DNA of 50,464 bases from Lachnospiraceae bacterium (GCA_017470735.1 JAFUYB010000053.1:1-50464), one strand, 5' to 3'. Counted from the stretch's first letter, positions 6,737 to 31,128 are shown. A program made the numbers and translations. The notes: generated by a model from the letters alone, not told the origin.

Positions 6737-6751
6737 GGAGGTGGATCCATC

Positions 6752-8340: not shown

Positions 8341-8549
8341 GATATCACCCCTGTGGTTTAAAATTGGAGATATTTTAGCCTATCAAAGAAAGAAAATATC
8401 CACAAATAAACTATATATCTTATGATTAGGGTTGTCAAGTTTAAAATGGGATAGTTATTCTTTAATATGGGGGAATAAATGGAAAATAATAAACTGTGGC
8501 AGTGCAAGGGAAGTCATCATCTCGATTTAGACAAAACCCGTAAAACCAA

Positions 8550-13425: not shown

Positions 13426-13483
13426 TAAGTCATGCAAAATGCATCAGTATTTTTGAGATTTGTTGTTTTGACGGCATAACTCC

Positions 13484-16400
13484 TTATTTCAGATCTTCCA
13501 CCTCAAAACTTACCTCATACTCCTTCGACTGCGGCCATTCCGCCACAATTTTTTCTATGAGTGCAGTGCGGTCTGAATCTTTATTGCCTGTCAGTATCGC
13601 CAAATATTCACAATCCCCATTCCGTGACACGATATCGCTGGAACCAAGCGACAGCGTCAGATGCTCAAAAAAGCTGTCCGCGTCTGCGGGCAAAACGGAT
13701 GAGCCGTCACCCTTTGGCACGATCACGAACCGGACGAACAGCACATGCATCGGATGTGCCTGCGAGAAGCGGACGAAAAAGCGGTAGATCACGCCGAGCT
13801 TTTCAAAACTGAGCGTGTAGGCTCCTTTGTCGACATTCCGCTCGCCGAGGATCATGCGTAGGTTTGACAGACTGGCGATGTCCGCCTTTTCCGACGCGGC
13901 ATTGGAAGCGGAGCCTTTGCGGTAAAAGGCATAGCCGTGCTTGCCGTTCTGCTTGACATTGTAAAGCGCCTTGTCCGCTTTCTGGTAGAGCGAGGTAAAA
14001 TCTGCCCCGCCATCCGGCACGCGCACCGCGCCGATCGAGGTGCCGAGGGGGATGTTCATGTCGTCGCCCATATAGGAGCGGGCGGACAGCACAAGCTCAT
14101 CGTTGATATAGCGGGCAATGTCCGCAACTTTCTGTTCTTCAACGTTTCCATGGAGAAAAGCGATAAACTCGTCGCCGCCCATGCGCCCTGCGAGGTCGTC
14201 AGGCTGGATGGATGCTTTGATCAGTTCGGAAAAGCAGATCAGGATCCAGTCGCCCATATCGTGTCCGTAAATGTCATTGACCAGCTTGAAGCTGTCGAGA
14301 TCGAGCATCATCAGGACTCCTGCGCTGCCATCGGCACAGAGCCTGCCGATCTCGCTTTCGGAAGCCGCTTTGTTCAGCAGTCCGGTCATTGCGTCGGTCG
14401 TCACCCGCTGCTGCAGACCGCGGACGCGCTCGGCGTGCTTCTGCAATTCACGGATCAGCCACACGAAGAATGAGAAAAACAGCAGGATCACAAAGAGCAG
14501 GTACGCCTTGAAATAAAACCGCTCAAACAGCTGGGATTCTTTCTCGACAGAAAAGCTCTCTTCCCGCGTCACTTCGCCGGTCGTCTCATCCAAAAGCTGC
14601 ACATGAAGCTTGTAATCCCCATAGGGCAGATTGGTGTAATCGAGAGGCTTCAGTTCGTTCTGATAGCAGGTAATGCCGGTGTCCTCGGCGCCTTCCAGAT
14701 AGATGTGGATCAGCGGATTGGACATTGTAAAATTCAGCACCGCGACCTGGATCTGGATTCTGCCTGAGACTGCGGGGATATGGAATGTGCCGTTGGTTTC
14801 AGGCACGGCCTTCCCAGCCGCTAAAATCGAGCTGACCCGGATCTGGTAGTCGTCGTTGAACGCATTGTAATCCACTGTGGAGATCCGCCGCACGCCGTCG
14901 GTGCAGCAGAGGTAGAGCAAGTCGTCTTCGGCGGCGTTCCAGGCGTTTGCGGTCAGGGTCGTAAAGAACCCGCGGGAGCGGTTTAGCAGCACATAGAGAT
15001 AATCTTTTTTATCGGCCAGCAGATCATTTTCCCGCACCAGATAAATGCCTGCGGAGGAACAGATCCACGCGATCCCGTCATCGGTGATGTGGATATCGTA
15101 ATTGTTGCTGTACGGGAAATTGGAAAGCTTTTTGATCTCACGCCGGTTGTCGTGGTAAATCGCGTTGCTGGTCACATACAGATACCCGTCCTTGCACTTG
15201 ATGATCCGCAGGACGACAAGCGTGTCCAGGCCATTTTTGCTGTCAATCGTGCCCGCGACCTTGTCATCCCGGATGATAAAAATACCTCCGCCGTCAGATG
15301 CCGCAAGGATGCTGCCGTCGTCGCGCTCCATCATCGAAAGGATCTGCGGTGTCGAAAGGCCGTCCGCTTCGCCGATGGCCTGCTTTACTTTTCCGTTTTT
15401 AATGAAATTGATCCCGGAAACGCTCGCTGCGGCAATCCGTCCGTCCGACAGCTCGATCGCCAGGCGGAACTCTCCGCCGACCGTGCCGTTTTTTTCATTA
15501 TAAGTCGTGATATCGCCGTCGGGAGCGATCTGCGCCAGGCCGTCCGGACCGTAGCTGCTGACCCAGATATTGCCCTTGCTGTCTTCCGTAATATGGCGGA
15601 TCCGCACATGCTCAAAGCGGGAGAGCCAGTCAAAGGATTCTTTGCGGTAAGAGGACAGATTTATCGCTTCCAGCCCGTCGTTTGTGGCAATGTAAAGGAT
15701 GCCGTTTCGCACGAGCAGGCTGTTGACAACGCTTGCGTTAAGACCAGCTTTTTTGAAAATGTCTTCGAACGGATTCCAGGAGTAACGGAGGATGCCCTGC
15801 TTGTTGGATGCGAACCAGATATTGCCCTGGTAATCCACGATCACATCGGAAATCGAGCTATCAAAGCCCGTGACAGTCAGGGCAGTCGGCTGAGCGGTCT
15901 TGCCGTCCCAAAAACCGAATCCGCTTTCACAGCAGAAAAAGAAACCGCCGGCATCGGCATTGTAGATCAGGTCGTTGAAAAAGGAGGCGGGCGAAAAAGA
16001 TACGCGTGCGCCCTTGACGATTCTTTCACCTTCGAGCGTGATATTGATCGCGTAGGATGAAGTCGTCCCGACCAGATAATGATTTCCGCCGTCGCAGGCA
16101 ACAGCGCGGTAATCGATGCCGTCTTCTTTGTGCAGTGTCGTTTTTTTGATGAGCCTGCCGTCCTTTATGAAAAATAATGTGCCCGAACCGGATACGCCCG
16201 CGATCGTGCCGTCCTCATTTTCGGCAAACGAGTGAACACCGCTCATATCCGTCCATTTGTCAAAGGTCTCCACCGTGCCGTCGGGATGAACGACCGACAG
16301 CAGGGCGACCGTTCCGACATAGATGTCGCCGTTTTTGTCTTCGCAGATGGCGCGGATCGCATTGGCGGCAAGTCCGTCTTCGGTCGTGTAAAATGTAATC

Positions 16401-17380
16401 TGTCCGGTCTTCGGATCGTAGCAGGCGATGCCGCTGTCATTGGTTCCGATCCACAGGCGGTCGTGGGAATCGACATACATTTGCATGACATTGTTGATGC
16501 GCTCGTCCAGATCAGGCTTTGTGAAAACAGACCCGTCATAACGGTAAAGTCCCGAATAAGTGCCCGCCCAGATAAAGCCGTCGGAAGTCTGCGCGATCGC
16601 GTTGATCTCAGCGGAATCCAGACCGTCGTCGGTATTGTAGGTGACCGCGGCGTATTCCGTGGCGTAATCCGCGGCATATACGGTATCCGTCTGATGGAAC
16701 AGCAAAAATGTCCCGAAAAGCGGAATGATAACGGCGGTCAGGGCCGATATGGATTTTATGCGCGTCAAAAGCCGCTTGAAGCATTCGATCAGCCCGCAGG
16801 CAATGATAATGGAAAACGCCTTGTCGGGCATATCGACAAAGGCTTCGCCTAAGATACTGTAAATCAGGGGAACACGGATATCGCCGGAGATCATATCGAT
16901 CAGGGCATCGCCCCAGATATTGCCGGTGTAGCCATCGTAGAGAATGATATTGAGCACTGTGGAAAGGATCACGCTGACCAGTCCCGCCAGCATAGCGGTA
17001 GAAATCACCGTAAATGCTTCCCGGGTGCGGTTCCGCGGAAAGAAGATGCCGACCACGAGCCCGACGCCGGCGCTGACGATGATATAATATAAAGAAGAAA
17101 AATCATCCATCCCGCGCAGAATGCTGCACGCGCCCCCGGCGATCATGCCTGCGGCGGGGCCGAGCTGGATCGCCGCAATAAAGGTGCCGATGCAGTCGAG
17201 CCAGAACGGAAGCGACAGCCTTTCTGCCAGCTTGCTGCCGCCATAGTTGATCATCACACAAAAAATGACCAGCAGGATATTTGCGCGACCCGCCGGGAAG
17301 CTCCGGCGTATCTTCAGATGGGTCAGTTTTTGTAAGGATTCCGTCAGCATGGCGCTCGTTCCTTTCAAAAGGATATACAA
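13484..17380 (-). CDS. Large sensor diguanylate cyclase: N-terminal polytopic membrane domain, periplasmic beta-propeller repeats (two-component-regulator propeller / Y_Y_Y type), TM, GGDEF, and a ~200-aa C-terminal domain of unknown function
   Basis: Repeats such as DGFIWAGTYSGLYRYDG and DRLWIGTNDSGIACYDPKTGQ, then TGLLNKAASESE...RMGGDEFIAF. There are multiple hydrophobic helices in the first 210 aa. Confidence 0.8.
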   Translation of the reverse strand: MYILLKGTSAMLTESLQKLTHLKIRRSFPAGRANILLVIFCVMINYGGSKLAERLSLPFWLDCIGTFIAAIQLGPAAGMIAGGACSILRGMDDFSSLYYIIVSAGVGLVVGIFFPRNRTREAFTVISTAMLAGLVSVILSTVLNIILYDGYTGNIWGDALIDMISGDIRVPLIYSILGEAFVDMPDKAFSIIIACGLIECFKRLLTRIKSISALTAVIIPLFGTFLLFHQTDTVYAADYATEYAAVTYNTDDGLDSAEINAIAQTSDGFIWAGTYSGLYRYDGSVFTKPDLDERINNVMQMYVDSHDRLWIGTNDSGIACYDPKTGQITFYTTEDGLAANAIRAICEDKNGDIYVGTVALLSVVHPDGTVETFDKWTDMSGVHSFAENEDGTIAGVSGSGTLFFIKDGRLIKKTTLHKEDGIDYRAVACDGGNHYLVGTTSSYAINITLEGERIVKGARVSFSPASFFNDLIYNADAGGFFFCCESGFGFWDGKTAQPTALTVTGFDSSISDVIVDYQGNIWFASNKQGILRYSWNPFEDIFKKAGLNASVVNSLLVRNGILYIATNDGLEAINLSSYRKESFDWLSRFEHVRIRHITEDSKGNIWVSSYGPDGLAQIAPDGDITTYNEKNGTVGGEFRLAIELSDGRIAAASVSGINFIKNGKVKQAIGEADGLSTPQILSMMERDDGSILAASDGGGIFIIRDDKVAGTIDSKNGLDTLVVLRIIKCKDGYLYVTSNAIYHDNRREIKKLSNFPYSNNYDIHITDDGIAWICSSAGIYLVRENDLLADKKDYLYVLLNRSRGFFTTLTANAWNAAEDDLLYLCCTDGVRRISTVDYNAFNDDYQIRVSSILAAGKAVPETNGTFHIPAVSGRIQIQVAVLNFTMSNPLIHIYLEGAEDTGITCYQNELKPLDYTNLPYGDYKLHVQLLDETTGEVTREESFSVEKESQLFERFYFKAYLLFVILLFFSFFVWLIRELQKHAERVRGLQQRVTTDAMTGLLNKAASESEIGRLCADGSAGVLMMLDLDSFKLVNDIYGHDMGDWILICFSELIKASIQPDDLAGRMGGDEFIAFLHGNVEEQKVADIARYINDELVLSARSYMGDDMNIPLGTSIGAVRVPDGGADFTSLYQKADKALYNVKQNGKHGYAFYRKGSASNAASEKADIASLSNLRMILGERNVDKGAYTLSFEKLGVIYRFFVRFSQAHPMHVLFVRFVIVPKGDGSSVLPADADSFFEHLTLSLGSSDIVSRNGDCEYLAILTGNKDSDRTALIEKIVAEWPQSKEYEVSFEVEDLK

Positions 17381-17773: not shown

Positions 17774-18202
17774 TCATATGTGCTGGGAGGATATATCGTC
17801 AACCGTTACGCAGGAAATTTCCGAGAACTGCCGGAGCTGCTTGTCGTTCGTGAGGAAGAGGTCGCAGCCGGCGATAACCGCTGTCGCAAGCTGCAGGGAG
17901 TCCATGCCCTTGAAACTGAGGTATTCTGCACGGATTCGAGCTGCTTTTTCAGCAATAGGGCGGTCTATGCTCATTACATTAATGCACATTGTCGTGATGA
18001 AATGATTAAACGCGTCAATCAAGGCCAGATCGTCGTTACGATATGGCAGAGGGAAATACTCCGCGATGGTTGCCACGGAGGTGACAAATTCAGCATTCGA
18101 ATGCTCTGTGAAGAATTGTGCCATAATGCCATAAAAAGATTCGCTTTTCTCTAAAAAATAGATCAGCGGCGAAGTGTCGAGGAATATTTTAGAATCGGTC
18201 AT
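17774..18202 (-). CDS. vapC: PIN-domain toxin (VapC-like)
   Basis: IFLDTSPLIYFL...LTNDKQL. The gene overlaps the upstream antitoxin gene by 14 nt. Confidence 0.65.
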   Translation of the reverse strand: MTDSKIFLDTSPLIYFLEKSESFYGIMAQFFTEHSNAEFVTSVATIAEYFPLPYRNDDLALIDAFNHFITTMCINVMSIDRPIAEKAARIRAEYLSFKGMDSLQLATAVIAGCDLFLTNDKQLRQFSEISCVTVDDISSQHI

Positions 18203-18425
18203 TGTCGCGCATCTCCTTTATGTAACTGTCAATTTCTTCGGCTGTCCTTCCGGTTGGTTTTGCATTGGCGCTATGCCATGCAAGGTATTCCGTGCGCTGG
18301 TCGGCAACGGATAATTCCTTCGTTGGTTCGTTGATGATAATTGTCACGGTCCGTCCGCTGAACGGACGGAGGTCATCCGATACAATGGAGTTTCCCTGTA
18401 TCCTGCCCTGCAATGCTGCTAACAT
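18189..18425 (-). CDS. MazE/AbrB-fold antitoxin (VapB-like)
   Basis: QGRIQGNSIVSDDLRPFSGRTVTIIINE fits the swapped-hairpin (W/Q)GNSxAVRIP...GDxV pattern. Direct repeats TTGACTACCA x2 lie in its promoter region. Confidence 0.5.
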   Translation of the reverse strand: MLAALQGRIQGNSIVSDDLRPFSGRTVTIIINEPTKELSVADQRTEYLAWHSANAKPTGRTAEEIDSYIKEMRDNDRF

Positions 18426-18643
18426 ATTTTCTCCTTTCGTTGCTTTAGAAGCCCTGTGAGCCGTTTTGGCTGCCTTGGGGTATTATTTTTGACTACCACT
18501 TTGACTACCAGCAGGGGTAAAAAAGGGGGTGTTTCGGCGAATTATGATAAACTTCAATAAAAGGGGTGTGGGTACTGTGAAGCCAGTGCTTACAATGGTT
18601 AGCGGTACTTATATGAACGATGGTAAACATTGGCAAATAAAAA

Positions 18644-18727
18644 TGCGGAGGATGGGACTTGAACCCACACGACATTGCTGCCACTAGATCCTTAGTCTAG
18701 CTCGTCTGCCAGTTCCGACACCTCCGC
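18644..18727 (-). tRNA. tRNA-Leu (class II, long variable arm); the anticodon loop as read is CUAAGGA, i.e. anticodon AAG
   Basis: Reverse complement is GCGGAGGTGTCGGAACTGGCAGACGAGCTAGACTAAGGATCTAGTGGCAGCAATGTCGTGTGGGTTCAAGTCCCATCCTCCGCA. T-loop is GGTTCAAGTCC. A34 is unusual for bacteria and needs checking. Confidence 0.75.
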
Positions 18728-18805
18728 ATTCGTCCGTTGAACGCAACGACTATATTACCAAAGACCCGGAAAAAAGTCAAGAAAGTTGCGGTCAGAAACA
18801 AATTT

Positions 18806-18836
18806 TTTTTCACAAACGCGAAAATTATGCTATACT
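18806..18836 (+). promoter_or_regulatory. Candidate promoter for the HD-GYP gene (extended -10 TGcTATACT)
   Basis: TGCTATACT at 18828-18836. The -35 is weak. Confidence 0.3.
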
Positions 18837-18875
18837 AATACGGCAACTTTGCAGGATTGGCATGGGAGAAAAGTT

Positions 18876-19970
18876 TTGGCGATCAAACAAAAGCGTGTCA
18901 GTATTCGGAAATTGGAAGAAGGGATGAAGCTCGGTCAGCAGATCAGGGATGCGACAGGACGGGTCTTGATCCAGCAGGGGACACAGCTTGAAGGGCATTA
19001 TATCCAGTACTTGGAGGAGCATGGCATCAACTCCATCATCATCCAGGAGGGTGAGGAGGACGGACCGCAGGTGCAGCTTTCGGACAAGGCAAAGCGCGCC
19101 GTTGAGCGGACGAGGGTGGATGATCCGGTCAAGGTTTCGCTGCGTGAAGATGTCAAAAAGCGTGTCGGCGAGGGCGTGCAGTTTTTATTTGACAATACGG
19201 AGTCCAAGAATTTTTTGGAGACGACGAACAATGTTTCCGAGGAATTGACGCGGGCGATCACCAAGTATGACGCTGTGGCGATCGATATTGCGCAGCTTAA
19301 AGTTTCAGATGAATACACATTCAAGCACAGCGTGGATGTGGCTTCCCTGTCGATGATCATTGGCAAGAAATACGGGCTGAAGAGGGACGAGATCCGGGAG
19401 ATCGGTATTGCGGGACTGCTGCATGATGTCGGCAAGTCCAAGATCCCAAAGCAGATTTTAAACAAGCCTGACCGTCTGACCGATGAGGAATTTCATCAGA
19501 TGAAGTTCCATTCCTTGTATGGTTACAAGATTTTGGAAGAAAACAACGGATTTTCCGTCGGCATCAAAAGCGGCGTGCTCCAGCACCATGAAAAGATGAA
19601 TGGAAAGGGTTATCCGATGTCGGTCGGCGGAGCGAAGATCCATCCGTTTGCGCGGATCATTTCGGTTGCGGATGTTTACGACGCATTGGTCACGGAACGC
19701 CCTTATAAAAAAGGTTTTCCGAAGAAGGACGCGATCGAGATCATTATGACGATGACCGATGACCTGGATATGAAAGCGATGAAGAGCTTTCTGACGAGCG
19801 TGATCCTCTATCCGGTGGACAGCATCGTCAGGCTTTCAAACGGCGAATACGGCAAGGTCGTTGAAAACAATCCCGATTACCCATTACGCCCCAAAGTCGT
19901 GGCGACCGAGACAGGCGCTGTGTACGATCTGAACAATGATGTCCACTGCCAGAGCATTGTGATTCTATAA
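18876..19970 (+). CDS. HD-GYP domain c-di-GMP phosphodiesterase
   Basis: HSVDV...LLHDVGKSKIP...HHEKMNGKGYP...VADVYDALVTERPYKKGF. TTG start at 18876 after GGGAGA. An alternative ATG lies at 18924. Confidence 0.8.
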   Translation: MAIKQKRVSIRKLEEGMKLGQQIRDATGRVLIQQGTQLEGHYIQYLEEHGINSIIIQEGEEDGPQVQLSDKAKRAVERTRVDDPVKVSLREDVKKRVGEGVQFLFDNTESKNFLETTNNVSEELTRAITKYDAVAIDIAQLKVSDEYTFKHSVDVASLSMIIGKKYGLKRDEIREIGIAGLLHDVGKSKIPKQILNKPDRLTDEEFHQMKFHSLYGYKILEENNGFSVGIKSGVLQHHEKMNGKGYPMSVGGAKIHPFARIISVADVYDALVTERPYKKGFPKKDAIEIIMTMTDDLDMKAMKSFLTSVILYPVDSIVRLSNGEYGKVVENNPDYPLRPKVVATETGAVYDLNNDVHCQSIVIL

Positions 19971-20000
19971 TATTTGGTATATAATATTTTAAATTTTTGT

Positions 20001-20035
20001 TGACTTCGGAGGAAAAATCAGTATAATTATCTAGT
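20001..20035 (+). promoter_or_regulatory. Strong sigma-A-type promoter for tRNA-Leu (TTGACT, 16 nt, TATAAT)
   Basis: ttgacttcggaggaaaaatcagtataat. Confidence 0.55.
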
Positions 20036-20069
20036 ACGGCTTGAGACAGAGCCGCTTTATATGGGAAAT

Positions 20070-20154
20070 GCACGAGTGGCGGAATTGGCAGACGCGCAGG
20101 CTTCAGGTGCCTGTGGTCGTTAAGATCGTGTGGGTTCAAGTCCCACCTCGTGCA
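20070..20154 (+). tRNA. tRNA-Leu (anticodon CAG)
   Basis: GCACGAGTGGCGGAATTGGCAGACGCGCAGGCTTCAGGTGCCTG...TGGGTTCAAGTCCCACCTCGTGCA. Anticodon loop is TTCAGGT. A T-run follows and no CCA is encoded. Confidence 0.85.
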
Positions 20155-20206
20155 TTTTTTGTGTATAATTGAGAAAACATTTCAAAACGACAAGGGAGGA
20201 ATGATT

Positions 20207-21232
20207 ATGTCATTATTCAAGAGCAAGCAATTCAGTTCGGTGATCGAGTGGGCGGATCCCGAGGAGGGAGTGCTGTTTCACCGATTTGACAATATCGAGC
20301 TCAAAAAAGGGTCGGTCTGCATCCTGCGCCCGGGGCAGGATGTGATCATTGTCAGCAACGGCGAGGTCAACGGCGTATTTACAAAGGACGGACGCTACAA
20401 TGTGGAGTCGGACATTATTCCGTTTCTGTCTACGGCTGCGGGCATTAAGTTCGGCTTTGACAGCGGACGGCGCATTGAAGCGGTTTTCGTCAACACCAAG
20501 GATATTTTGCAGAACTGGGGCACGCGCAGTCCGATCAATATCGAATTTCCGGGACTGCCGGGAGGCATACCGGTACGGGCAAACGGCAATTTTGTCTGCC
20601 ATGTCGATGAGGAGAAATACCCGGTTCTTGTCGAAAACATCGCCGGTATCCAGACCGAATTTACGGTAGAGGATCTGCGGGAACGGTTGCTCGGATCGAT
20701 CGAACAGTCGCTGATGCAGCATATTTCCCAGCTCGCGGGGACGATTCAGACCCTGCAGTCACAGGTGAGTACGATTTCGGCGGAGATTCTGCCGGAGATC
20801 GATGCGGAGACATCAAAATACGGCATCCGTATCCGTGATTTCAAGGTGATGAGCTTTTCCTATCCCGAAGGCGTGCAGGAGAAGCTCGAACAGGCCGCGG
20901 GTATCGGATTGCTGGGGAACAACATCGCGGCTTACCAGCAGGTGGCGCTGGCAGACGGCTTGCGCGAAGGCGGCGGAGCTGCAGGCATGGCAGGCATGTT
21001 TGTCGGTGCTCAGGCAGGCGCGCAGATGGGACAGAATTTCGTGGCAGGCGCAGCCCAGAACGCGGCAGGCGCAACTCAGAATGCAGTAGGCGGTGCCGGA
21101 ATGGGCGCAGCACAAAACGCGGCGGGAGCGGCACAGCAGCCGTCAGGCGGCGGTTTCTGCATTAAGTGCGGGACAGCGCTTCCGGCAGGCGCGGCATTCT
21201 GCCCGTCCTGTGGTAACAAGGTCGGTGCGTAA
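20207..21232 (+). CDS. SPFH (band-7/flotillin-like) domain protein with a Gly/Ala/Gln-rich tail and a C-terminal zinc ribbon
   Basis: AGGGAGGA RBS. The ORF-track start at 20150 overlaps the tRNA, so it was trimmed to the ATG at 20207. The C-terminus reads ...GGGFCIKCGTALPAGAAFCPSCGNK. Confidence 0.65.
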   Translation: MSLFKSKQFSSVIEWADPEEGVLFHRFDNIELKKGSVCILRPGQDVIIVSNGEVNGVFTKDGRYNVESDIIPFLSTAAGIKFGFDSGRRIEAVFVNTKDILQNWGTRSPINIEFPGLPGGIPVRANGNFVCHVDEEKYPVLVENIAGIQTEFTVEDLRERLLGSIEQSLMQHISQLAGTIQTLQSQVSTISAEILPEIDAETSKYGIRIRDFKVMSFSYPEGVQEKLEQAAGIGLLGNNIAAYQQVALADGLREGGGAAGMAGMFVGAQAGAQMGQNFVAGAAQNAAGATQNAVGGAGMGAAQNAAGAAQQPSGGGFCIKCGTALPAGAAFCPSCGNKVGA

Positions 21233-21299
21233 GCGTCGGGCAGTGTTTCACATCATTGGTATTTGAAAATGGCAGTTGACAAATGGGAGGTGGCGGTCA

Positions 21300-22826
21300 A
21301 TGAGGTCATGCCCGAATTGCGGAGGCGGTCTGAAATTTGACATCGGATCGCAGAAATTAAAATGTCCAAGCTGCAGCAGCATGTTTCCGGTGGGGGAGAT
21401 ACCGGAGGTGCGGGCGGCAAAGGCGGACGGGACGATGGATGCGATGATCTTTTCCTGCCCGCAGTGCGGCGGGGAGGTCTGGTCTACATCAGAGACAGCG
21501 GCAGGCTTCTGTTCATTCTGCGGCGCGTCCGTGCAGCTTGAAGGCCGGATGGCGGCGGAAAAGATGCCCGAGCAGATCATTCCGTTTCAGATTACCGGAA
21601 AGGAATGCGGCAAACGGTTCCGCGAGCATGTGAAAAAATATTTCTTTTCGCCGTCCGATTTGAGCCAGGAAAACGCGAAAATGGAATTCCGCGGGATCTA
21701 TATGCCTTATTGGGATTATACGGTGCACCAGGAAGCGCATATCGACCGGGAATACAGGGATGAGCATCGCAGCGGCGATTACCGGATCGTCCGGTACTAT
21801 GATTTTGACTGGGATCTGAATGAGGATATCGAAGCGATCCAGCACGATGCGTCGCGCTCGTTCAATGATGATGTCGGAGTGGCGATCGCGCCGTTTGAAC
21901 CGGAAAAACGGGTGGCGTTTGACTCCGGCTATATGGAAGGCTTCTATGGCGATGTGGCGGATACGCAGTGGGAGGATTACGCCGATTTCGCGATTGATGA
22001 AGCGGTTGGTTATACGGAGCGCGCGATCCGAACCAAGACAAAGGGTACCCGTACGGACAAGGGACCGACCGGCAATGATGAGTTTCATGGCCGGATTATA
22101 AAGCGTCAGCTTTCGCTGTTTCCGGTCTGGTTTTTGTCATACCGTTCCGGCAACCGGGTCGCGTATTCGGCGGTCAATGGACAGACGGGAAAGGTACATG
22201 TGGATCTGCCGGTGTCGCCGGCCAAATTCGCGGGACTGACTGCGGCGATCACGGCGGTACTGTTTGTGTTCTTTTTGCAGCTTTTTACTCCATCGCCGCA
22301 GACGGATGTCGGGATCGCGATGATCATGTCGATTGCCGCGTCCGCAATTTTTACGGTGATGACGCAAAAGATCCTCGAACGGGATGAACTGCTGGAAAAG
22401 AAAGAGAAAAAAGAGGGAAGCAATCGAAAAAAAGGACTGATTTTAGGCTGCACAGGCAGCTGCCTGATCGTCATTGTCCTTTTCGTATCGATTCTTGTGG
22501 GTTTGGTTTTCTTTATTGAAATAGCGGCAGCAGTGATCGCGCTATGGGCACTGGTCCGTTATTTGCAGAGGAACAAGCTGTTTGTCAAGGCAAACGGACA
22601 GGGCGTGTTCCCGTCGCCGCTTCTGGCATTTGCCGCGGCGCTTTTGGGCATTGCCGTGGTTTTGTGGAATCCGGTTTCCGATTTCTGGTACTACGGCATC
22701 ACGGCGCTGGCAATGGCAGCGGCCGCGATCTCTCTCGGTTCGATCATTGCGCTGCGGAATATGCTTTCGACGAGGCGCTTGCCGCAGTTTGACACGCACA
22801 AAGGAGGTGATCACCGTGCAAGGTAA
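21300..22826 (+). CDS. Multi-zinc-ribbon membrane protein (hypothetical)
   Basis: GGGAGGTGG lies 6 nt before the ATG. There are three CxxC pairs in the first 90 aa (CPNCGG, CPSC, CPQCGG, CSFCG). About six TM helices are predicted in the C-terminal half. Confidence 0.6.
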   Translation: MRSCPNCGGGLKFDIGSQKLKCPSCSSMFPVGEIPEVRAAKADGTMDAMIFSCPQCGGEVWSTSETAAGFCSFCGASVQLEGRMAAEKMPEQIIPFQITGKECGKRFREHVKKYFFSPSDLSQENAKMEFRGIYMPYWDYTVHQEAHIDREYRDEHRSGDYRIVRYYDFDWDLNEDIEAIQHDASRSFNDDVGVAIAPFEPEKRVAFDSGYMEGFYGDVADTQWEDYADFAIDEAVGYTERAIRTKTKGTRTDKGPTGNDEFHGRIIKRQLSLFPVWFLSYRSGNRVAYSAVNGQTGKVHVDLPVSPAKFAGLTAAITAVLFVFFLQLFTPSPQTDVGIAMIMSIAASAIFTVMTQKILERDELLEKKEKKEGSNRKKGLILGCTGSCLIVIVLFVSILVGLVFFIEIAAAVIALWALVRYLQRNKLFVKANGQGVFPSPLLAFAAALLGIAVVLWNPVSDFWYYGITALAMAAAAISLGSIIALRNMLSTRRLPQFDTHKGGDHRAR

Positions 22827-23775
22827 ACAGAAAAAGCAGGGAAGAACGCCTTTTGCGCGGCTGGAATCAGGCAGGCACGCCCGCTGTGCGGGATGGAAGA
22901 TGAGAATGGCATTTTTCGGTCTGCTGGCGGTTCTGTTGTGTGCGATAGTGCCGGGCAACGCGGTCTGTGCCGCGGAGGAGCTGACGGAAACGGCGGACGA
23001 ATTAAACGGTGCGTCAGATGAACTGTCTGATCCGGCGGACGGGACTGACGAAGCGTACGGAGATGCGGATGCGCAGGAGCAGAGCATCGAACTGGCATAC
23101 AAGAGCGACAAGAGCGGGAAGACGCTGGTCGTAGAGGACGGGGAGAACCTGTTTTCCGATAGTGAGATCCGGCAGTTTATAGAATCCGCCTCAGGCGTGC
23201 TGGAATATGCGAATGTCTATATCGTGACTTCAAGCGAAGAAAATTACGAAGGGTACGCGAAACGGCTGATTGACGATACCTTTGGCAACGGCTCGGATTC
23301 GACCTTGTTTATGATCAACATGAATCCGCGGAAGCTCTATATTTTCTCGGAAGGACAGGCGAAAAAGACACTGACGAAGGACAAGGCGCGGACGGTCACC
23401 GACAATATTTACCGTCAGGCGAGCCTCGGAGCGTACTATGCCTGCGCCGAGAAAGCGCTACGCCAGGAAGCGACGCTGCTTTCGGGAGGACGGATATTGG
23501 AGCCGATGAAGTATATCGGCGATTTCTTCCTCGCGTTTATGGTCGCCATCCTGCTGGTATTCGGGCAGACATTCTGGCTGCGTCCGAGGGAGAAGCGGGA
23601 AGTGATCGCCGGCATCGACGAAGCGGTGCTGGCAGCGATCGCATCGGGCATTGCGTTCAGCTTCAGCCGGGAGGAAAAGATTTACGATCCGCCAAGCAGC
23701 AGTGATTCCGGCTCCGGAGGAGGAGGCGGATTCAGCGGCGGTGATTCTGGTGCCGGCGGCGGGCATTCGTTTTAA
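22816..23775 (+). CDS. TPM-domain (YgcG-like) secreted/membrane protein
   Basis: AAGGAGGTG + 6 nt + GTG at 22816, overlapping the previous gene by 11 nt. There is a signal peptide. An acidic linker is followed by the TPM fold, one TM helix and a C-terminal SGGGGGFSGGDSGAGGGHSF tail. Confidence 0.6.
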   Translation: MQGKQKKQGRTPFARLESGRHARCAGWKMRMAFFGLLAVLLCAIVPGNAVCAAEELTETADELNGASDELSDPADGTDEAYGDADAQEQSIELAYKSDKSGKTLVVEDGENLFSDSEIRQFIESASGVLEYANVYIVTSSEENYEGYAKRLIDDTFGNGSDSTLFMINMNPRKLYIFSEGQAKKTLTKDKARTVTDNIYRQASLGAYYACAEKALRQEATLLSGGRILEPMKYIGDFFLAFMVAILLVFGQTFWLRPREKREVIAGIDEAVLAAIASGIAFSFSREEKIYDPPSSSDSGSGGGGGFSGGDSGAGGGHSF

Positions 23776-23787: not shown

Positions 23788-24858
23788 TTACAGTTTGCGC
23801 ATACGGTCAGGATTGATCGCATAGGTCATTGCAGTTTCCCGCGTGATGCGCCCTTCGTGGTAAAGCTCCTTTAAGCTGTCGTCCATCGAGCGCATCCCGC
23901 CGCCGGTTCCCGAATAGATCATACCGTCAATCTGGTAGATCTTGTTGTCGCGGATCATGTTGCGGATCGCGGGCGTGACGGTCATGATCTCAAAGACCGG
24001 CACGATGCTGTTGTCGATGGTCGGCACGAGCTGCTGCGAGACGACGGCATGCAGCACGGTCGAAAGCTGTACCGCGATCTGGTGCTGCTGGTTTGCCGGG
24101 AACACATCGATAATACGGTTGATCGTATTGGCGGCACCGATCGTATGCAGCGTGGACAGCAGCAGGTGTCCGGTTTCCGCGGCCGTCATTGCGACAGAAA
24201 TCGTTTCAAAATCACGCATCTCACCAAGCAGGATGACATCGGGACTTTGGCGGAGCGCCGCGCGCAGGGCGGCGACATAGCTTTCGGTATCGACGACAAC
24301 CTCGCGCTGGCTGACGATGCTTTTTTTGTGCCGGTGCAGATACTCGATCGGGTCTTCAAGAGTGATGATGTGCGCTTCCCGCTTTTCGTTGATATCTTCA
24401 ATGATACACGAAAGTGTCGTGGATTTGCCCGAGCCGGCCTGGCCGGTCACGAGCACCATGCCGTTGGAGAAATTGCCGAGGTCGATGATCTCCTGCGGGA
24501 TGTGCAGCTTTGACGGATCGGGCAGCTCAAAGCTGATGATACGCATAACCGCGGACAATGCGCCCCTCTGTTTGTAGGCGCAGACACGGAATCTTGAGAA
24601 TCCGGGGATCGCAAGGGAAAAGTCGTCGTCGCCGCGGTCGATCAGGATGCGGATATCACGGTCGGCAAGGCGGTAGATTTCCCGCAGCAGTTCTTCCGTC
24701 TGCGCCGGGAATACCTTTTCTCCGCCGTCCATATTGATCACGCCGTTCTTGCGGAAGGACACCGGTATACCTGCGACGATGAACACATCGGATGCGCGTT
24801 CCCGTACTGCCCGCTCTAAGATCTGCTCGATTCTCGTTTTCTCTTCCATAGTAGTCAC
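23788..24858 (-). CDS. pilT: PilT-type type IV pilus ATPase (retraction-ATPase family)
   Basis: Walker A (GQAGSGKST). PilT signature AIRNMIRDNK. 356 aa. Confidence 0.8.
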   Translation of the reverse strand: MTTMEEKTRIEQILERAVRERASDVFIVAGIPVSFRKNGVINMDGGEKVFPAQTEELLREIYRLADRDIRILIDRGDDDFSLAIPGFSRFRVCAYKQRGALSAVMRIISFELPDPSKLHIPQEIIDLGNFSNGMVLVTGQAGSGKSTTLSCIIEDINEKREAHIITLEDPIEYLHRHKKSIVSQREVVVDTESYVAALRAALRQSPDVILLGEMRDFETISVAMTAAETGHLLLSTLHTIGAANTINRIIDVFPANQQHQIAVQLSTVLHAVVSQQLVPTIDNSIVPVFEIMTVTPAIRNMIRDNKIYQIDGMIYSGTGGGMRSMDDSLKELYHEGRITRETAMTYAINPDRMRKL

Positions 24859-24888
24859 CTCGTGTATGGTCGTTTGTTGTCAAAATAA

Positions 24889-25350
24889 TTACCGTATGAC
24901 ATTTACGGTATCGTCGCCCTCCCAATTCTTGGTGGCGATTGTTTTAAACTCCGAAAACCGGTAGGCATTGGTTTCTTTGTCGTATTTAAAGACAACGGAC
25001 AGCGCCTGGATATCGGAAAGCTCATACTGGCGGCTGATTTTTGTTTCTAGTGTATCCGGGGTGGCATTGTCGGCTGTATCCGCTGCATCCGGTTCTGTGC
25101 CGGCTGCATTATTTCCACTGCTTGCCGCCGCCTTTCGGTTCAGCTCCGCTAAGTCCGTCTCCGCCTGGTTTGCCGCGGCATAATAGGCGTCGCGGCTGCT
25201 TTTGGTCAGTCCTGCCTGATGCCATTCGTTTTCCGCCTGCACGAGTGCGATCGCGGAAAAGGTGAACAGGCACAAAATCAGGAACACGACTAGAAGCAGT
25301 GAGATGCCGATATTCGCGGGTGGCGAAGCGTTGTTGCGTTCTGTGTTCAT
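24889..25350 (-). CDS. Small membrane-anchored protein (pilus-associated, hypothetical)
   Basis: A single N-terminal TM helix. The gene is co-directional and tightly spaced within the pil-like cluster. Confidence 0.45.
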   Translation of the reverse strand: MNTERNNASPPANIGISLLLVVFLILCLFTFSAIALVQAENEWHQAGLTKSSRDAYYAAANQAETDLAELNRKAAASSGNNAAGTEPDAADTADNATPDTLETKISRQYELSDIQALSVVFKYDKETNAYRFSEFKTIATKNWEGDDTVNVIR

Positions 25351-25369
25351 AAAAAGAAGCTCCTGTCAC

Positions 25370-25834
25370 TTATGGCGATGGTTGCTTTGCGTGATTGACG
25401 GACAGACTGTACACCTCGTCGCCATTCACATTGCGAAAGGTCAGATCGGCGTTTAGCATGTCGTCCGTTTCCGTCAATTGTACCGTCTCGACCTGCGCGA
25501 GCGTGCTCTTTGCCGTCGGCAGGTAATTGTCGTTAAAGTAGATCGAGATTTCATAGGGATCGGATTCCTGCGAAAGCTCCGCGTATTCATATACCCGCCC
25601 GATCTGCTGGGATACTTCCTCGATCGAGTTGGAGGTCCGTACCAGCTCCGCCGTGTCCGAGCAGATGTTCAATGCGTGGTTCAGCGCCTTGGCGCGTTCG
25701 CTCTGGATGTGCGCCTGCACGAAAATGGTAATGCACACGGACGCCGCCAATGTAAAAAACAAGATCGCGACGACAAGCTCCATCAGAAAGAGAGAGGAAG
25801 CAGACGCTCTTTTTCGCTTTAATTCCGCATTCAT
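25370..25834 (-). CDS. Prepilin-like protein (type IV pilin / pseudopilin candidate)
   Basis: The N-terminus KRKRASASS|LFLMELVVAILFF has Glu at +5 from the putative cleavage site, with Ser instead of the canonical Gly at -1. The stop overlaps the next gene's start by 4 nt. Confidence 0.5.
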   Translation of the reverse strand: MNAELKRKRASASSLFLMELVVAILFFTLAASVCITIFVQAHIQSERAKALNHALNICSDTAELVRTSNSIEEVSQQIGRVYEYAELSQESDPYEISIYFNDNYLPTAKSTLAQVETVQLTETDDMLNADLTFRNVNGDEVYSLSVNHAKQPSP

Positions 25835-26415
25835 GGTGTTCCTCCGGTTGATGTATCCGTGCTCTGGCCTGTTGCCGCAGCTGTCCCCGGTGTCTTGCTG
25901 CTTTCCGTGAAGCTGTTATCGACAACCAGATCCCCCGCATACACGCCGACCCGCGCTGTCGCCGTCTGTCCGTCGTTGTCCGTGCAGGAGAAAGACAGCA
26001 GGCGGTCTCCGGCGACCTCTACATTGAAATCCGCGATCTCGAGGATCGCCTGGCCGGAGGATGCGGTGAAATTCGCTTCCATGCCGTCCTTGATGAACAG
26101 CTCCCTCAACGCGCCGTTTGCCGCGTAAATATAAGTAGCGTACCAGTCATCGCCGAATTTTTCCTTCATCACGACTGCCTTAGAACCGTCAAAGGTCGTC
26201 ACGCCGATCCGCCCGTTGTCGTGCTGGTGGATCTTCTCGCGGATGTAGGAGAGCGAGGTGTTGGCGTTGTAATTCATGGCCGCGTCGGCAACCGTCCGCT
26301 GGTATACCTGCGCCGCGAAAAGAATGACGATCAGCGCAGAAAGTGTGAATGCAAAAAAAATCATAACAGGAAATACAAATTCAATTTGCCGGTTTTTTGA
26401 AACAGGTTTCCGCAT
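25831..26415 (-). CDS. Membrane-anchored protein (pilus-assembly accessory, hypothetical)
   Basis: N-terminal TM helix with a Thr/Gly-rich C-terminus. Confidence 0.45.
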   Translation of the reverse strand: MRKPVSKNRQIEFVFPVMIFFAFTLSALIVILFAAQVYQRTVADAAMNYNANTSLSYIREKIHQHDNGRIGVTTFDGSKAVVMKEKFGDDWYATYIYAANGALRELFIKDGMEANFTASSGQAILEIADFNVEVAGDRLLSFSCTDNDGQTATARVGVYAGDLVVDNSFTESSKTPGTAAATGQSTDTSTGGTP

Positions 26416-26434
26416 ATTGTTACTTTCCTTGGTG

Positions 26435-26902
26435 TTACCTTAAAATAGTGCGGTTTTCGGCGCGTTCGAGGATATTATTCTTCATCTCCTCTTTCTTTTC
26501 TAACACCGCATACACGGTCTCCTGCGCGAAGCCGATTGCCTTTTGCGCAGGCGTGCGGGTGTCTTCGGGATGCAGCTCGATGATCGTCACATCGGGAATA
26601 ATGTTCTGCGCCCGCACCTGATAATCCACATAAAACAGGTCTTCATTGTAATACAGTCCGTAATCCGAGCGGATGGCCTCAAGGGATTCCGGATAATGTC
26701 CGGTCGTGGCGTAGCAGTAGACGATGTCGCGGGAGAGCGCGTCGGTCAGGCTTTCCTTCTGTCTTTTGGTGGAGCCTTTGCTTAAAGAACCCGTGCCGAC
26801 CACAAAAAGCACGATGACCATCGTAAACAGCAGCAGGGTCGGAAGCAGTGAGGCAAGCGTGCCGGTATGCCGTTTGGTTGTGATATAAGAAAACCGTGCC
26901 AT
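26435..26902 (-). CDS. Membrane-anchored protein (hypothetical)
   Basis: N-terminal TM helix. No canonical prepilin motif. Confidence 0.45.
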   Translation of the reverse strand: MARFSYITTKRHTGTLASLLPTLLLFTMVIVLFVVGTGSLSKGSTKRQKESLTDALSRDIVYCYATTGHYPESLEAIRSDYGLYYNEDLFYVDYQVRAQNIIPDVTIIELHPEDTRTPAQKAIGFAQETVYAVLEKKEEMKNNILERAENRTILR

Positions 26903-26970
26903 AAATCAACTCCCCGGCACTCCCGGGACAGATGCTTAAAAACCAGCAGCACATCCCGGCAGCATTCCCA

Positions 26971-28107
26971 TTACAATGTCGCCATAATCCCAAGCAGCGG
27001 GAACATTACGGACAGCAGGATCACACCGACCACGACCGAGAGCACGACGATCAGCGCGGGCTCTAAAACCGCCAGCCGGTTGGAGATTTTTGTGTCTATT
27101 TCATCTTGGTAAAGCGTTGCGATCTGCCCCATGACCTGGTCGAGCGAACCGGTCTTGTTGCCGATTGAGGTCAGGCGCGAATACACGCCGGTAAAAATGC
27201 TCGTCTCGTGAAGCGCGTCGGAAAGCGATGTGCCCTCCAGCATCTTGGCGCGGCACTTGTCAAGCTTCTTGCCAAAGTCTTTATCTTCGTTCAATTCCGC
27301 CACCAACTCAAAGCCGCGGTCAGGCGAGAGTCCGCTCCGCAGGATCAAAGACATGCCGTCCGCAAAACGGCAGGAGGCGATGCGGTCGTTCAGTTCCCTT
27401 GTCGCCTTGAACCGTCTTGTAACTCTTCTCGATAAGGCTTTTCCGGCATCGGTCTTGACGCAGAAGAACGCAAAGATAATGATGACGGCGAGCAGGATTA
27501 CAAACAGCAGCGCGTAGGTGCTGATGAAGTTGGACGCTGCCATCAGTCCCGCGGCAAAGCCTGTCATTTCGGTGCCGAGCTGGCGGAATACCTGGTTGAA
27601 GATCGGCATCACACGCACCAGCAGAATGATAATGACCGCAATGATCATGCCCGACATGATCAGAGGGTAGGTGACCGCGCTCTGGATCGACTGCCGCAGC
27701 TGTTCCTCGCGGCTGTAATGCTCTTCAAGCGCTTCCATGACCTCATCGAGATTGCCGGTTTCCTCGCCGATCGCGACCATATGGATCATATAGTCGGGAA
27801 AAGCTTCCGTAGCGGCCAGGCCGACCGAAAGCTGCCCGGTCAGATGCACGGTCTCCACGATGATCTCGACGATTTGCCGGTCCGCGCCGGTGGAGAAGTC
27901 ATCCTCCATCATTTCCACGCCCTCGATCGAGGAAATGCCGGACTTTAAGATCAGAGCCATCTGCCCGCAGAAATAGGACAGCTCCAGATAAGAGAGCGGA
28001 CGGATTTTTTTCCGGCGGCTCTTTTTGGGCTTCTTTGCCCGTGGCTCCTTTTTTGGTTTTTCGGTTTTTATTTTTGCTCTTTTTCGTGGCATAATCTTTC
28101 CCGTCAT
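26971..28107 (-). CDS. pilC: PilC/GspF-family platform protein with an unusual ~45-aa Lys/Arg-rich N-terminal extension
   Basis: Two T2SSF repeats (GISSIEGVEMM...; GLSPDRGFELV...). The N-terminus reads MTGKIMPRKRAKIKTEKPKKEPRAKKPKKSRRKK. Confidence 0.75.
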   Translation of the reverse strand: MTGKIMPRKRAKIKTEKPKKEPRAKKPKKSRRKKIRPLSYLELSYFCGQMALILKSGISSIEGVEMMEDDFSTGADRQIVEIIVETVHLTGQLSVGLAATEAFPDYMIHMVAIGEETGNLDEVMEALEEHYSREEQLRQSIQSAVTYPLIMSGMIIAVIIILLVRVMPIFNQVFRQLGTEMTGFAAGLMAASNFISTYALLFVILLAVIIIFAFFCVKTDAGKALSRRVTRRFKATRELNDRIASCRFADGMSLILRSGLSPDRGFELVAELNEDKDFGKKLDKCRAKMLEGTSLSDALHETSIFTGVYSRLTSIGNKTGSLDQVMGQIATLYQDEIDTKISNRLAVLEPALIVVLSVVVGVILLSVMFPLLGIMATL

Positions 28108-28166
28108 CGGAATGCCTTAAGACGCGCTGTCCGGCGTCTGCGGCAATCCCTGCACTTAAGCCAAGA

Positions 28167-29096
28167 TCAATAGGTATATTTTGTCGTGTAATTGCTGCCG
28201 TCTCCGACATAATCCTTCACCGATTCGTCGTCGTTGTTGGCGGCAAGCGTCGGATCCATCAGAGACCAGTTCTGGCCGTTAAACTGGATGATGTCGTCCA
28301 CCCAGCCCTGCTCCGCCAGATAGACGGAAATCCATGCGTGGTAGGCCGTGCCCGAATAGCCGACCTCCAGCTTGGTCGGGACGCTCTGGGAACGCAGCAT
28401 GGCGCTCATGACCGAAGCGTAATCGAAGCAGATGCCGGTCTTGGATTCTAAGGTCGCGTCCACATCGGGGATATAGTTGACCGAAATGTCGGCCGCCTTT
28501 TCATTGTCATAGGAAATATTTTCGGTGACATATTCGTACACATTGGTCACGAAATCCAGGTCATCCGAGGAGTCATTGGAAATATCGACGCCCAAAGAGA
28601 CCGCGGCGGAATCCGGTGTGTAATTGACATACTGGTTCGGATAGAGGTACGGGCGGAATTCGTCCGTCAGTGCCACATCCACGGGCTGTGAAAGCCCAAC
28701 GGAATACATATCATCCGAAACGTGCTCCAGCACATCGATCTGGTACGAACCGTCGCCGCCGGTCAGAGGCAATGTCTGGTAATCGCCGATCGGCAGGGGA
28801 TACTGATACAAAGTGCCGTCGGGATTCGTGATCTGTACCTGGATCTTGTCCGCGGCACCAGTGTATTTGACCATCACATAGCCGTCTGCCGTGTTGGAAG
28901 CATCGATGGAAATGGTATCGCCGCCGTAGACCACCTCGCCGGAGGCTTCCGGCATCAGCGTGGATGTCGTCGTCTCGCGTGTGCCGCCGGATGAGTCGTT
29001 GCTTTTGGCTTTGCCGCCGCCTTTGGAGCATCCTGAAAGGATGAGCGCGCCGGAAAGCGCAGTGACGCAAAGCAGTGATAAAAATTGTCGTTTCAT
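28167..29096 (-). CDS. Transglutaminase-like cysteine-protease-fold lipoprotein
   Basis: Lipobox LILSGCS. Catalytic triad context: GICFDYASVM, YHAWISVY and LMDPT. Confidence 0.7.
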   Translation of the reverse strand: MKRQFLSLLCVTALSGALILSGCSKGGGKAKSNDSSGGTRETTTSTLMPEASGEVVYGGDTISIDASNTADGYVMVKYTGAADKIQVQITNPDGTLYQYPLPIGDYQTLPLTGGDGSYQIDVLEHVSDDMYSVGLSQPVDVALTDEFRPYLYPNQYVNYTPDSAAVSLGVDISNDSSDDLDFVTNVYEYVTENISYDNEKAADISVNYIPDVDATLESKTGICFDYASVMSAMLRSQSVPTKLEVGYSGTAYHAWISVYLAEQGWVDDIIQFNGQNWSLMDPTLAANNDDESVKDYVGDGSNYTTKYTY

Positions 29097-30195: not shown

Positions 30196-31128
30196 TTACA
30201 ATGCCATCCGCTGGCGGAACAGCTGTACGCGTGTCCGCTTCGTGTCGAGCATCTGCAGCTTCTGCGCGCCGATCAGCGCGATGTCCTCCTGCGTGAAGGT
30301 CACGGAAAGAGGCAGGGGTTCGAGCTGTTCTTCTTCGATCAGCTCCTCAAACGGAATGATTTCCTGCAGCAGCTTTTCATTTTCGCTCTGTTCTTCTTCG
30401 ACAGCGGCTTCGCCGCGGACTTTCTCGGTCAGACGGTTGGATGAAAGAGCAATCAACCGCGTGATCGAGGTGATATCGTCCCGCGCGGCATAGGCCACGC
30501 CAAATTCGTACTCGATGTGATGGTTCTTGGTATTGGCATTGTAATCCCGCACTTTATCCGCCAGGCGGTCCAAAAAGACCGCGAGATGCAGATCGGAGCT
30601 TTTTTCATATAATATAATGAAGCGGTTGCCGCCGTTGCGTCCGACGATGCATTCGTCCAGTGAAGCCATCGACAGAATGATCGAAAAGGCGCGGATCAGG
30701 TTGTTGCCCTCAACGCGTCCATAGTTGGAGTTGACCTCTTTTAATGAAGTCAATTCGATCATCGCGGCGCCCATCTCGCCCGGAATGTCCTTGTCAGCGT
30801 ATTCATCGATGATCGAGTCGATCGAATAGCGGTTGGCGATCCGCGCGACCGAGTCGGTATTGGCGGCTGCGGTCAGGCTCGCTAAATTTTCGTTCTGTTT
30901 TGAGTATAGGGAGAAATCGACAAAGATGCAAGCAAAACTCAAAAAAAGTGATACCCAAAGGAAAATACACAGATGCATGACATTTTTATCCGTGGTGATC
31001 TGCTGGTAGATATCGCTTGCGATGACGATTTGGTAGAAGCAGACGCCTGCGAAGGCCATGAAGACGACGAGTTCTAAGGTTTTCATTTGGTCGAATTTTT
31101 TCATTTGTACACACACCTTTCTCAGCAC
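30196..31128 (-). CDS. Membrane protein with a degenerate GGDEF domain (GGNRF in place of GG[DE]EF)
   Basis: Two N-terminal TM helices. DSVARIANRYSIDS...RVEGNNLIRAF...IVGRNGGNRFIILYE. Confidence 0.6.
   Translation of the reverse strand: MLRKVCVQMKKFDQMKTLELVVFMAFAGVCFYQIVIASDIYQQITTDKNVMHLCIFLWVSLFLSFACIFVDFSLYSKQNENLASLTAAANTDSVARIANRYSIDSIIDEYADKDIPGEMGAAMIELTSLKEVNSNYGRVEGNNLIRAFSIILSMASLDECIVGRNGGNRFIILYEKSSDLHLAVFLDRLADKVRDYNANTKNHHIEYEFGVAYAARDDITSITRLIALSSNRLTEKVRGEAAVEEEQSENEKLLQEIIPFEELIEEEQLEPLPLSVTFTQEDIALIGAQKLQMLDTKRTRVQLFRQRMAL

Follow-up and report, generated by a model that had tools for sequence, protein, structure and literature searches.

An SPFH, zinc-ribbon and TPM gene triad in a Lachnospiraceae genome, a probable variant of the Bacillus ydjGHI (samGHI) module without an adjacent pspA

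A 50,464-nt stretch of DNA from a Lachnospiraceae bacterium (GCA_017470735.1 JAFUYB010000053.1:1-50464), the whole of which is referred to here as the window, contains at positions 20207-23775 three co-oriented open reading frames (ORFs) that fill this interval of the + strand and encode, in order, an SPFH protein, a zinc-ribbon membrane protein and a TPM-domain protein. The first, g1 (20207-21232; 341 aa), has the Shine-Dalgarno (SD) sequence AAGGGAGG positioned 7 nt before its ATG. It is followed by g2 (21300-22826; 508 aa), with an SD, GGGAGG, 9 nt before the ATG, and by g3 (22816-23775; 319 aa), which has a GTG start codon and the SD AAAGGAGG located 8 nt upstream. The coordinates of these three tightly linked genes were borne out as given in an initial annotation, made from the sequence alone, and the 11-nt overlap reported there for the last two genes is exact, the g3 start at 22816 lying inside g2, which ends at 22826. 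The placement of the triad downstream of a tRNA-Leu gene is also correct, with ARAGORN and Rfam (53.5 bits) identifying a tRNA-Leu(CAG) on the + strand at 20069-20155, 51 nt upstream of g1.

The initial annotation had likened the triad to membrane-stress modules such as ydjG, ydjH and ydjI of Bacillus, next to pspA. In B. subtilis, these genes belong to the pspA-ydjG-ydjH-ydjI operon, which is controlled by sigma-W (Scholz et al. 2021, PMC8581546) and has been renamed pspA-samGHI (Baur et al. 2026, preprint 10.64898/2026.02.06.704340); the three products and their homologues are designated G, H and I below. YdjI is composed of a band-7 domain, a region of low complexity and a C-terminal zinc ribbon (PMC8581546), YdjG of two zinc ribbons, a YpeB-related domain and a transmembrane (TM) segment, and YdjH of a TPM domain and a low-complexity tail (Ravi et al. 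2024, PMC11237479). Used as an exact DNA pattern, the ydjG primer from PMC8581546 retrieved four B. subtilis-group genomes, B. subtilis itself not being among them, and the four genes of B. stercoris (L007) were taken as the Bacillus reference and proxy for B. subtilis. All three window proteins proved homologous to their Bacillus counterparts, by the measures given with each protein below, and the Pfam families identified in the window and Bacillus proteins are the same, namely PF13421 plus a zinc ribbon, and PF04536. The likeness therefore holds, as does the accompanying statement that the gene order differs, being I-G-H in the window and PspA-G-H-I in Bacillus. The triad matches an experimentally studied operon and is therefore less novel than it might have been. 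There is no NCBIfam family for g1, g2 or g3.

As predicted, g1 is an SPFH protein with a low-complexity tail and a zinc ribbon. Residues 24-232 (20276-20902) match Band_7_1 (PF13421) with an E value of 2.6e-33, as compared with 2.3e-43 for Bacillus YdjI, and are followed by a Gly/Ala/Gln low-complexity stretch (aa ~253-316; 20963-21154) and a C-terminal CxxC...CxxC zinc ribbon (Zn_Ribbon_1, PF13240; aa 317-338; 21155-21220; E 5e-07), in which the CIKC...CPSC motifs span aa 318-335. No TM segment or hairpin anchor was found in g1, with no hydropathy window reaching 1.6. In a direct comparison, g1 and Bacillus YdjI align over their full length with 38% identity (E 1e-81), and g1 is, to judge from its sequence, a YdjI/SamI homologue and a soluble SPFH protein. 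A tblastn search of plasmids with g1 returned only distant SPFH matches at 22-28% identity, mostly on Ralstonia megaplasmids, and was uninformative.

The second protein was described initially as having three N-terminal zinc ribbons and about six TM helices. The number of helices was supported by both hydropathy and AlphaFold2 modelling, but g2 has only four CxxC motifs, at C4, C22, C53 and C71, and therefore two zinc ribbons (aa 4-25, 21309-21374, and aa 53-74, 21456-21521) rather than three. These are followed by a conserved alpha/beta domain (aa ~81-301; 21540-22202), the six TM helices (aa 307-489; 22218-22766) and a basic C-terminal tail with a conserved LPQFD..KGGD motif. The AlphaFold2 models have confidence (pLDDT) values of 81 and 84. 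K/R-rich loops at aa 361-379 and 420-433, together with the basic C-terminus, fit a six-TM topology in which both ends of g2 would be located inside the cell. By BLASTP, aa 4-323 of g2 align with aa 7-328 of YdjG, essentially the whole Bacillus protein, at 27% identity (E 6e-39), and the invariant motifs common to both include G-Y-P, P-V-W and NGQTGK. Beyond YdjG, g2 carries a C-terminal extension of ~185 aa that adds five TM helices, so that the single C-terminal TM of the Bacillus-type YdjG (~341 aa) is replaced by six, and g2 is, from this alignment, a YdjG/SamG homologue of a long form. Long-form G proteins, 440-600 aa in length, constitute a subfamily with a wide distribution among Lachnospiraceae; g2 itself is IJ682_09240, from a Lachnospiraceae metagenome-assembled genome. 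The G family as a whole comprises 4539 clusters at 50% identity (E<=1e-3), 720 of them with E<=1e-30. The g2 central domain has no Pfam match, and a match of the six-TM half to Bax1-I was sub-threshold (E 0.0086; 16 bits versus a cut-off of 34) and judged to be due to chance.

SPFH genes are often paired with a gene encoding a membrane partner, and on this pattern g2 could be an NfeD-like partner, as in QmcA-YbbJ and FloT-YuaF, with g1 forming an SPFH cage that regulates a protease or client. The pairing itself and a weak secondary match of g1 to Band_7 (PF01145) are in keeping with this, but that match scores 27.7 bits as opposed to 115.9 for Band_7_1, and g1 has no TM or hairpin anchor. No NfeD family match was detected in g1, g2 or g3 at E<=0.01, or in the separate halves of g2 at E<=1; the AlphaFold2 model of the g2 central domain suggests no NfeD-like OB fold, and g2 is a demonstrable YdjG homologue. 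We regard such an arrangement as highly improbable. The initial annotation had noted that its reading would fall if the middle gene were a known NfeD-type partner and the triad an established operon; the first of these was not found, and the triad does match an operon that has been studied experimentally.

A secreted TPM protein with a Gly-rich tail was the initial description of g3. The TPM domain and the tail are present, but g3 also has a C-terminal TM and appears, from its sequence, to be a membrane-anchored ectodomain protein with the TPM domain outside and the tail in the cytoplasm, and not simply secreted. A basic N-terminus precedes a hydrophobic signal or anchor (aa 33-51; 22912-22968), and an acidic linker connects this to the TPM domain (PF04536; aa 106-217; 23131-23466; E 3e-08). 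There is then a TM identified by hydropathy (aa 237-255; 23524-23580), an RPREKRE stretch and a Ser/Gly-rich tail ending in GGGHSF (aa ~293-319; 23692-23772). The basic N-terminus and the RPREKRE stretch after the last TM argue for the TPM domain being outside. In pairwise BLASTP comparison, g3 and Bacillus YdjH are only 24% identical across the TPM domain, TM and tail (E 1e-05), and hhalign aligns the two H subfamilies over 212 columns spanning the same regions with 99.0% probability (E 3.3e-18). On this basis, g3 is a YdjH/SamH-like protein.

G and H are the tightest unit of the module. At the g2/g3 junction (22800-22826), which has the layout of a translational-coupling site, the g3 SD AAAGGAGG (22800-22807) coincides with codons for the conserved K-G-G of the g2 tail and is followed by the GTG at 22816 and the g2 stop codon at 22824-22826. 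At all 12 loci inspected, Bacillus included (the window, L001, L004, L007, L010, L011, L012, L015, L033, L038, L044 and L077), the GGAGG SD of H doubles as coding sequence for the conserved terminal GG[GD] of G, so that the protein motif and the ribosome-binding site constrain each other. Among the best 150 g2-family representatives, nine (P0140, P0181, P0185, P0187, P0195, P0198, P0210, P0223 and P0227; 709-839 aa) match both the G and the H profile and are candidate G-H fusions, with zinc ribbons, central domain and TM helices followed by TPM domain, TM and Gly tail. In these the G tail runs directly into the H signal-anchor and the junctions read through naturally. Such a fusion fits the topology, as the H anchor would become a seventh TM helix, but some or all of these proteins could have arisen through frameshift or assembly errors, for which the choice of the longest sequence as representative would select. 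In other Lachnospiraceae, g2 homologues with 34-38% identity overlap a TPM gene and have no SPFH gene adjacent.

The core function could be enzymatic or assembly-related and located outside the membrane. The TPM ectodomain might then have phosphatase activity, or might help to repair or assemble a complex within the membrane or beyond the cytoplasm, as has been suggested for TLP18.3/Psb32 of plants, and g2 and g1 would be its membrane partner and an accessory, respectively. The conservation of G-H as a unit without I or PspA in many Lachnospiraceae, and as fusions, is what such a function would predict, and the rival phosphatase and assembly hypotheses for TPM domains have been reviewed (PMC11237479). 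In an alignment over both H subfamilies there are, however, very few invariant polar residues, D108 being the only residue invariant within the domain, which argues against a conserved catalytic site, and YdjH of B. subtilis acts as an anchor or signalling component (PMC8581546; preprint 10.64898/2026.02.06.704340). This explanation is rather improbable.

The distribution of gene arrangements was evaluated with 80 metagenomic loci that have YdjI-like proteins, their ORFs being scored with hidden Markov models built from the window and Bacillus proteins. Pooled with the window, L006, L007, L010 and L011, these provided 85 YdjI-like genes that fall into 43 clusters at 90% identity. The most frequent arrangements are PspA-I (14 of the 43 clusters) and I alone (13, some on short contigs), followed by PspA-G-H-I (7), I-G-H (4), PspA-G-I (3) and single clusters with G-H-I, cut upstream, and with G-H-PspA-I. 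L095 and L096 have precomputed Pfam labels of PspA_IM30 beside Band_7_1, in agreement with the PspA-I class. I-G-H without pspA is restricted to the clade nearest to g1, whose five lineages are the window and L010, L094, L011 and L015, in which I is 86%, 79%, 71% and 49% identical to g1, respectively; L094 was added by targeted look-up and is outside the 43-cluster count. In all four relatives, G and H overlap, as in the window. Flanking genes vary among L010, L011 and L094 and are different again in the window, so that the triad can be seen to move as one unit; L015 is on a contig of 3.4 kb, which leaves hardly any flank visible. The co-occurrence of the three genes that the initial annotation had proposed to examine is maintained in five lineages, with most YdjI-like clusters adjoining pspA. 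In L011 (10405-12081), the relative at 71% identity, the triad is followed by two further genes encoding proteins of 321 and 233 aa that start with a Zn_Ribbon_1 and may be additional lineage-specific partners.

Taken together, the triad is probably a rearranged ydjGHI (samGHI) module without pspA beside it, in which a G-H complex docks g1. Rather than a novel type of system, it is a lineage-specific variant of an experimentally studied module, which makes up the membrane component of the sigma-W-dependent pspA operon. In B. subtilis, both YdjG and YdjH reside in the membrane, and deletion of ydjG or ydjH abolishes both YdjI and PspA foci; bacterial two-hybrid contacts were obtained for G-H, H-I, H-PspA and I-PspA, and the SPFH protein recruits PspA (PMC8581546). 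SamI is reported to restrain SamG-SamH signalling, and deletion of pspA does not reproduce the samI phenotype (preprint 10.64898/2026.02.06.704340). By extension from B. subtilis and the predicted topologies, the zinc ribbons and alpha/beta domain of g2 would be cytoplasmic, with six TM helices and both ends inside the cell, and g3 would place its TPM domain outside the membrane and return by one TM helix to leave the Gly-rich tail inside. The two proteins would assemble into a membrane-integral complex, which would survey the envelope and dock the soluble g1 at the inner face of the membrane, through the zinc ribbons and alpha/beta domain of G and the Gly-rich tail of H. The docked g1 would then oligomerise as a scaffold and restrain or tune G-H signalling. 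For recruitment of g1 to the membrane by G and H, the basis here would be the linkage of their genes. The five extra TM helices of g2 are taken as a possible enlarged membrane-embedded platform for sensing or anchoring. A further role of the docked SPFH protein in Bacillus is to bring in PspA for repair of the membrane. For the triad, PspA might be supplied in trans, from elsewhere in the genome, or might not be needed, and we consider these two about equally probable.

Several observations weigh against this reading. As the initial annotation had stated, there is no pspA here: a tblastn search with Bacillus PspA over the 50-kb window, which covers 20 kb upstream and 26 kb downstream of the triad, had a best E value of 0.66, and none of the 41 window ORFs scanned with Pfam has a PF04012 match. 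The regions beside the L010, L011 and L094 triads likewise lack PspA (within 10 kb for L094), and recruitment of PspA, the best-documented output in Bacillus, therefore cannot be assumed for the window triad. A sigma-W-type motif (TGAAAC-N15-18-CGTA) is absent near the triad, the lone match in the window being at 8110, which is weak evidence as regulation in Clostridia may differ. Many Lachnospiraceae retain G-H without an adjacent SPFH gene, so that G-H may function without I, and the pairwise similarity of g3 and YdjH is weak. The mechanism proposed for this long-form, Clostridia member, moreover, would be carried over from a single organism, with part of it taken from a preprint.

An alternative is an orthodox Psp system that is split across the genome, with the triad as no more than the membrane receptor for a PspA encoded elsewhere and PspA-mediated repair as its sole output. 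An adjacent pspA is present in 25 of the 43 YdjI-like clusters (PspA-I 14, PspA-G-H-I 7, PspA-G-I 3 and G-H-PspA-I 1), PspA-I pairs occur in other Lachnospiraceae and Eubacteriales, and in B. subtilis PspA foci require YdjG, YdjH and YdjI (PMC8581546). Long-form G is also not confined to loci that lack PspA, as L038/L058 encode a 540-aa G that matches g2 over its whole length (E 3e-53) and belongs to the G-H-PspA-I cluster. Opposed to this are the lack of PspA in the window and the available flanks of four related I-G-H loci, and the PspA-independent SamGHI phenotypes in B. subtilis (preprint 10.64898/2026.02.06.704340). We give a split Psp system considerable weight, somewhat short of an even chance.

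Within the preferred reading of a rearranged samGHI module, a more tentative and rather doubtful proposal is that the triad may suffice by itself as sensor and scaffold for envelope stress, with no need for PspA. The widespread long-form SamG plus SamH, sometimes as one fused polypeptide, would be the ancestral transmembrane sensing unit, the SPFH protein an optional brake or scaffold and PspA one of several outputs. Work on YdjGHI/SamGHI has been confined to B. subtilis and has invariably treated these proteins as accessories of PspA. The I-G-H loci without pspA, the commoner G-H dyads and the fusions provide independent comparative support for SamG-SamH as the sensor itself, and for the proposal that the SPFH protein regulates SamG-SamH, beyond ferrying PspA. 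Current understanding is not overturned; a known system is extended. The G family is large (the 4539 clusters noted above), abundant in human-gut and rumen Lachnospiraceae, and has a central domain without a Pfam model or a close solved structure, and it is a reasonable target for structural and genetic study.

Upstream of the tRNA-Leu gene, at 20000-20027 on the + strand, is a sigma-70-like promoter candidate (TTGACT-16-TATAAT) with 11 of 12 consensus matches. Recognised by a consensus scan and sequence inspection, it could drive a tRNA-g1-g2-g3 transcript. Between this site and the tRNA, a short GC hairpin followed by CTTTATATGG (20037-20054) was flagged by a terminator scan, and a second perfect TATAAT is located just 3′ of the tRNA (20164-20169). 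An Rfam scan of 18.0-24.5 kb identified two tRNAs only, with no riboswitch or leader. No tRNA adjoins the triad in L010, L011 or L015, and the tRNA-Leu is a neighbour that does not belong to the conserved module. The triad was nevertheless considered as possible cargo of a mobile or anti-phage island inserted at the tRNA-Leu, as it starts 51 nt past a tRNA gene and there is mobile-element debris at both window ends. The GC content of the triad equals that of the flanking chromosome (0.53-0.57), PADLOC (PADLOC-DB) has no match for any of the three proteins, there is no adjacent integrase or repeat, the neighbours are chromosomal cyclic di-GMP (c-di-GMP) and pilus genes, and relatives carry the triad without a tRNA. 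On the GC content, the PADLOC result and the tRNA-less relatives, a tRNA-linked island was rejected and is scarcely credible.

At 18786-19970 is a gene encoding an HD_5 (HD-GYP-like) protein, and an HD_5 gene is present beside G/H in three further lineages (L001 8662-9759, L094 7450-9558 and L061 284-1585), the window and L001 HD_5 proteins being 51% identical end to end. No HD_5 gene was found in 67 loci (682 kb) without G, a comparison in which numbers are small and confounded by taxonomy. This adjacency could be leftover synteny or a c-di-GMP link. On the tentative reading of a sensor that works without PspA, its output in Lachnospiraceae could, given that HD-GYP genes keep turning up next to G-H loci, be passed on to c-di-GMP signalling. 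Besides the HD_5 gene, the window is dense in c-di-GMP genes at 10789-17380 and 30196-31128, encoding a GGDEF-EAL protein of 878 aa, a protein of 1298 aa that combines a multi-TM region with a Reg_prop beta-propeller and GGDEF, and one more GGDEF protein.

Convergent to the triad, a type IV pilus or type II secretion system (T2SS)-like cluster occupies 23788-29096 of the - strand, with genes for a PilT-like T2SSE ATPase, T2SSF, DUF4860, a transglutaminase-like protein and several pseudopilin-like ORFs of ~150 aa with N-terminal hydrophobic segments; the ATPase gene ends 12 nt past g3. A second tRNA-Leu, tRNA-Leu(AAG) (18643-18728), adjoins a VapBC-like toxin-antitoxin pair (17774-18425, - strand) in which a PIN-domain toxin gene (142 aa) overlaps an upstream 78-aa ORF. 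The first 10 kb of the window (1-10000) has a GC content of 0.38-0.47, as compared with ~0.53 elsewhere, and many truncated gene pieces, including a C-terminal fragment of ADH_Fe, fragments of a UDP-glucose dehydrogenase and of an integrase SAM-like domain, and RCC1 repeats, plus an IS66 TnpB, and looks like decayed mobile-element or pseudogene debris. A low-GC patch at the other end (47764-50449; 0.38 at 48-49 kb), with genes for a HipA-like kinase and, at the window edge, a serine resolvase, is probably another mobile element.

When compared with Bacillus samGHI, all three proteins of the window triad are homologous and have the same domain order. Bacillus I and g1 are alike in having an SPFH Band_7_1 domain, low-complexity region and zinc ribbon; Bacillus G and g2 in having two zinc ribbons, the conserved alpha/beta domain and a TM region; and Bacillus H and g3 in having a signal or anchor, TPM domain, TM and a Gly-rich tail that ends in F. 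In both, the stop codon of G overlaps the start of H, with the SD within the terminal Gly codons of G. The two differ in gene order; in pspA, which is part of the Bacillus operon and is neither adjacent to the window triad nor within its 50 kb; in sigma-W control, for which no corresponding promoter is present near the triad; in G, which has six TMs and 508 aa in the window versus one TM and 341 aa in Bacillus; in H, with an extra acidic linker of ~60 aa in g3 relative to YdjH; and in the host, here an anaerobic member of the gut or rumen Lachnospiraceae.

The PspA-YdjI dyads and G-H-PspA-I loci of gut Firmicutes metagenomes (L016-L096) have SPFH proteins of the same family, 40-45% identical to g1, and L038/L058 share with the window a long-form G that is alignable over its entire length, but in these loci the SPFH gene is directly preceded by pspA, and G and H are missing from most. 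The Lachnospiraceae G-H dyads (L001-L005, L012-L013) have the long-form G, 34-38% identical to g2, and the overlapping TPM gene, and differ in having no adjacent SPFH gene. In two of these lineages, the dyad is directly 3′ of trkA-trkH, which function in K+ uptake (L001 3114-6014 and L012 5106-7972), and the L001 dyad shares 14 nt with the end of trkH. SPFH-NfeD pairs and HflKC-FtsH resemble the triad in that an SPFH protein is encoded beside a membrane partner, and differ from it in that g1 has no membrane anchor, its partner is not NfeD and no protease gene is linked. The E. coli PspABC and B. subtilis LiaIH-LiaF systems have been likened to SamGHI (preprint 10.64898/2026.02.06.704340). Save for PspA, which is missing here, their components are not homologous to those of the triad, and what they would share with it is the proposed logic, in which a peripheral subunit, regulatory or scaffolding, restrains a sensor complex in the membrane.

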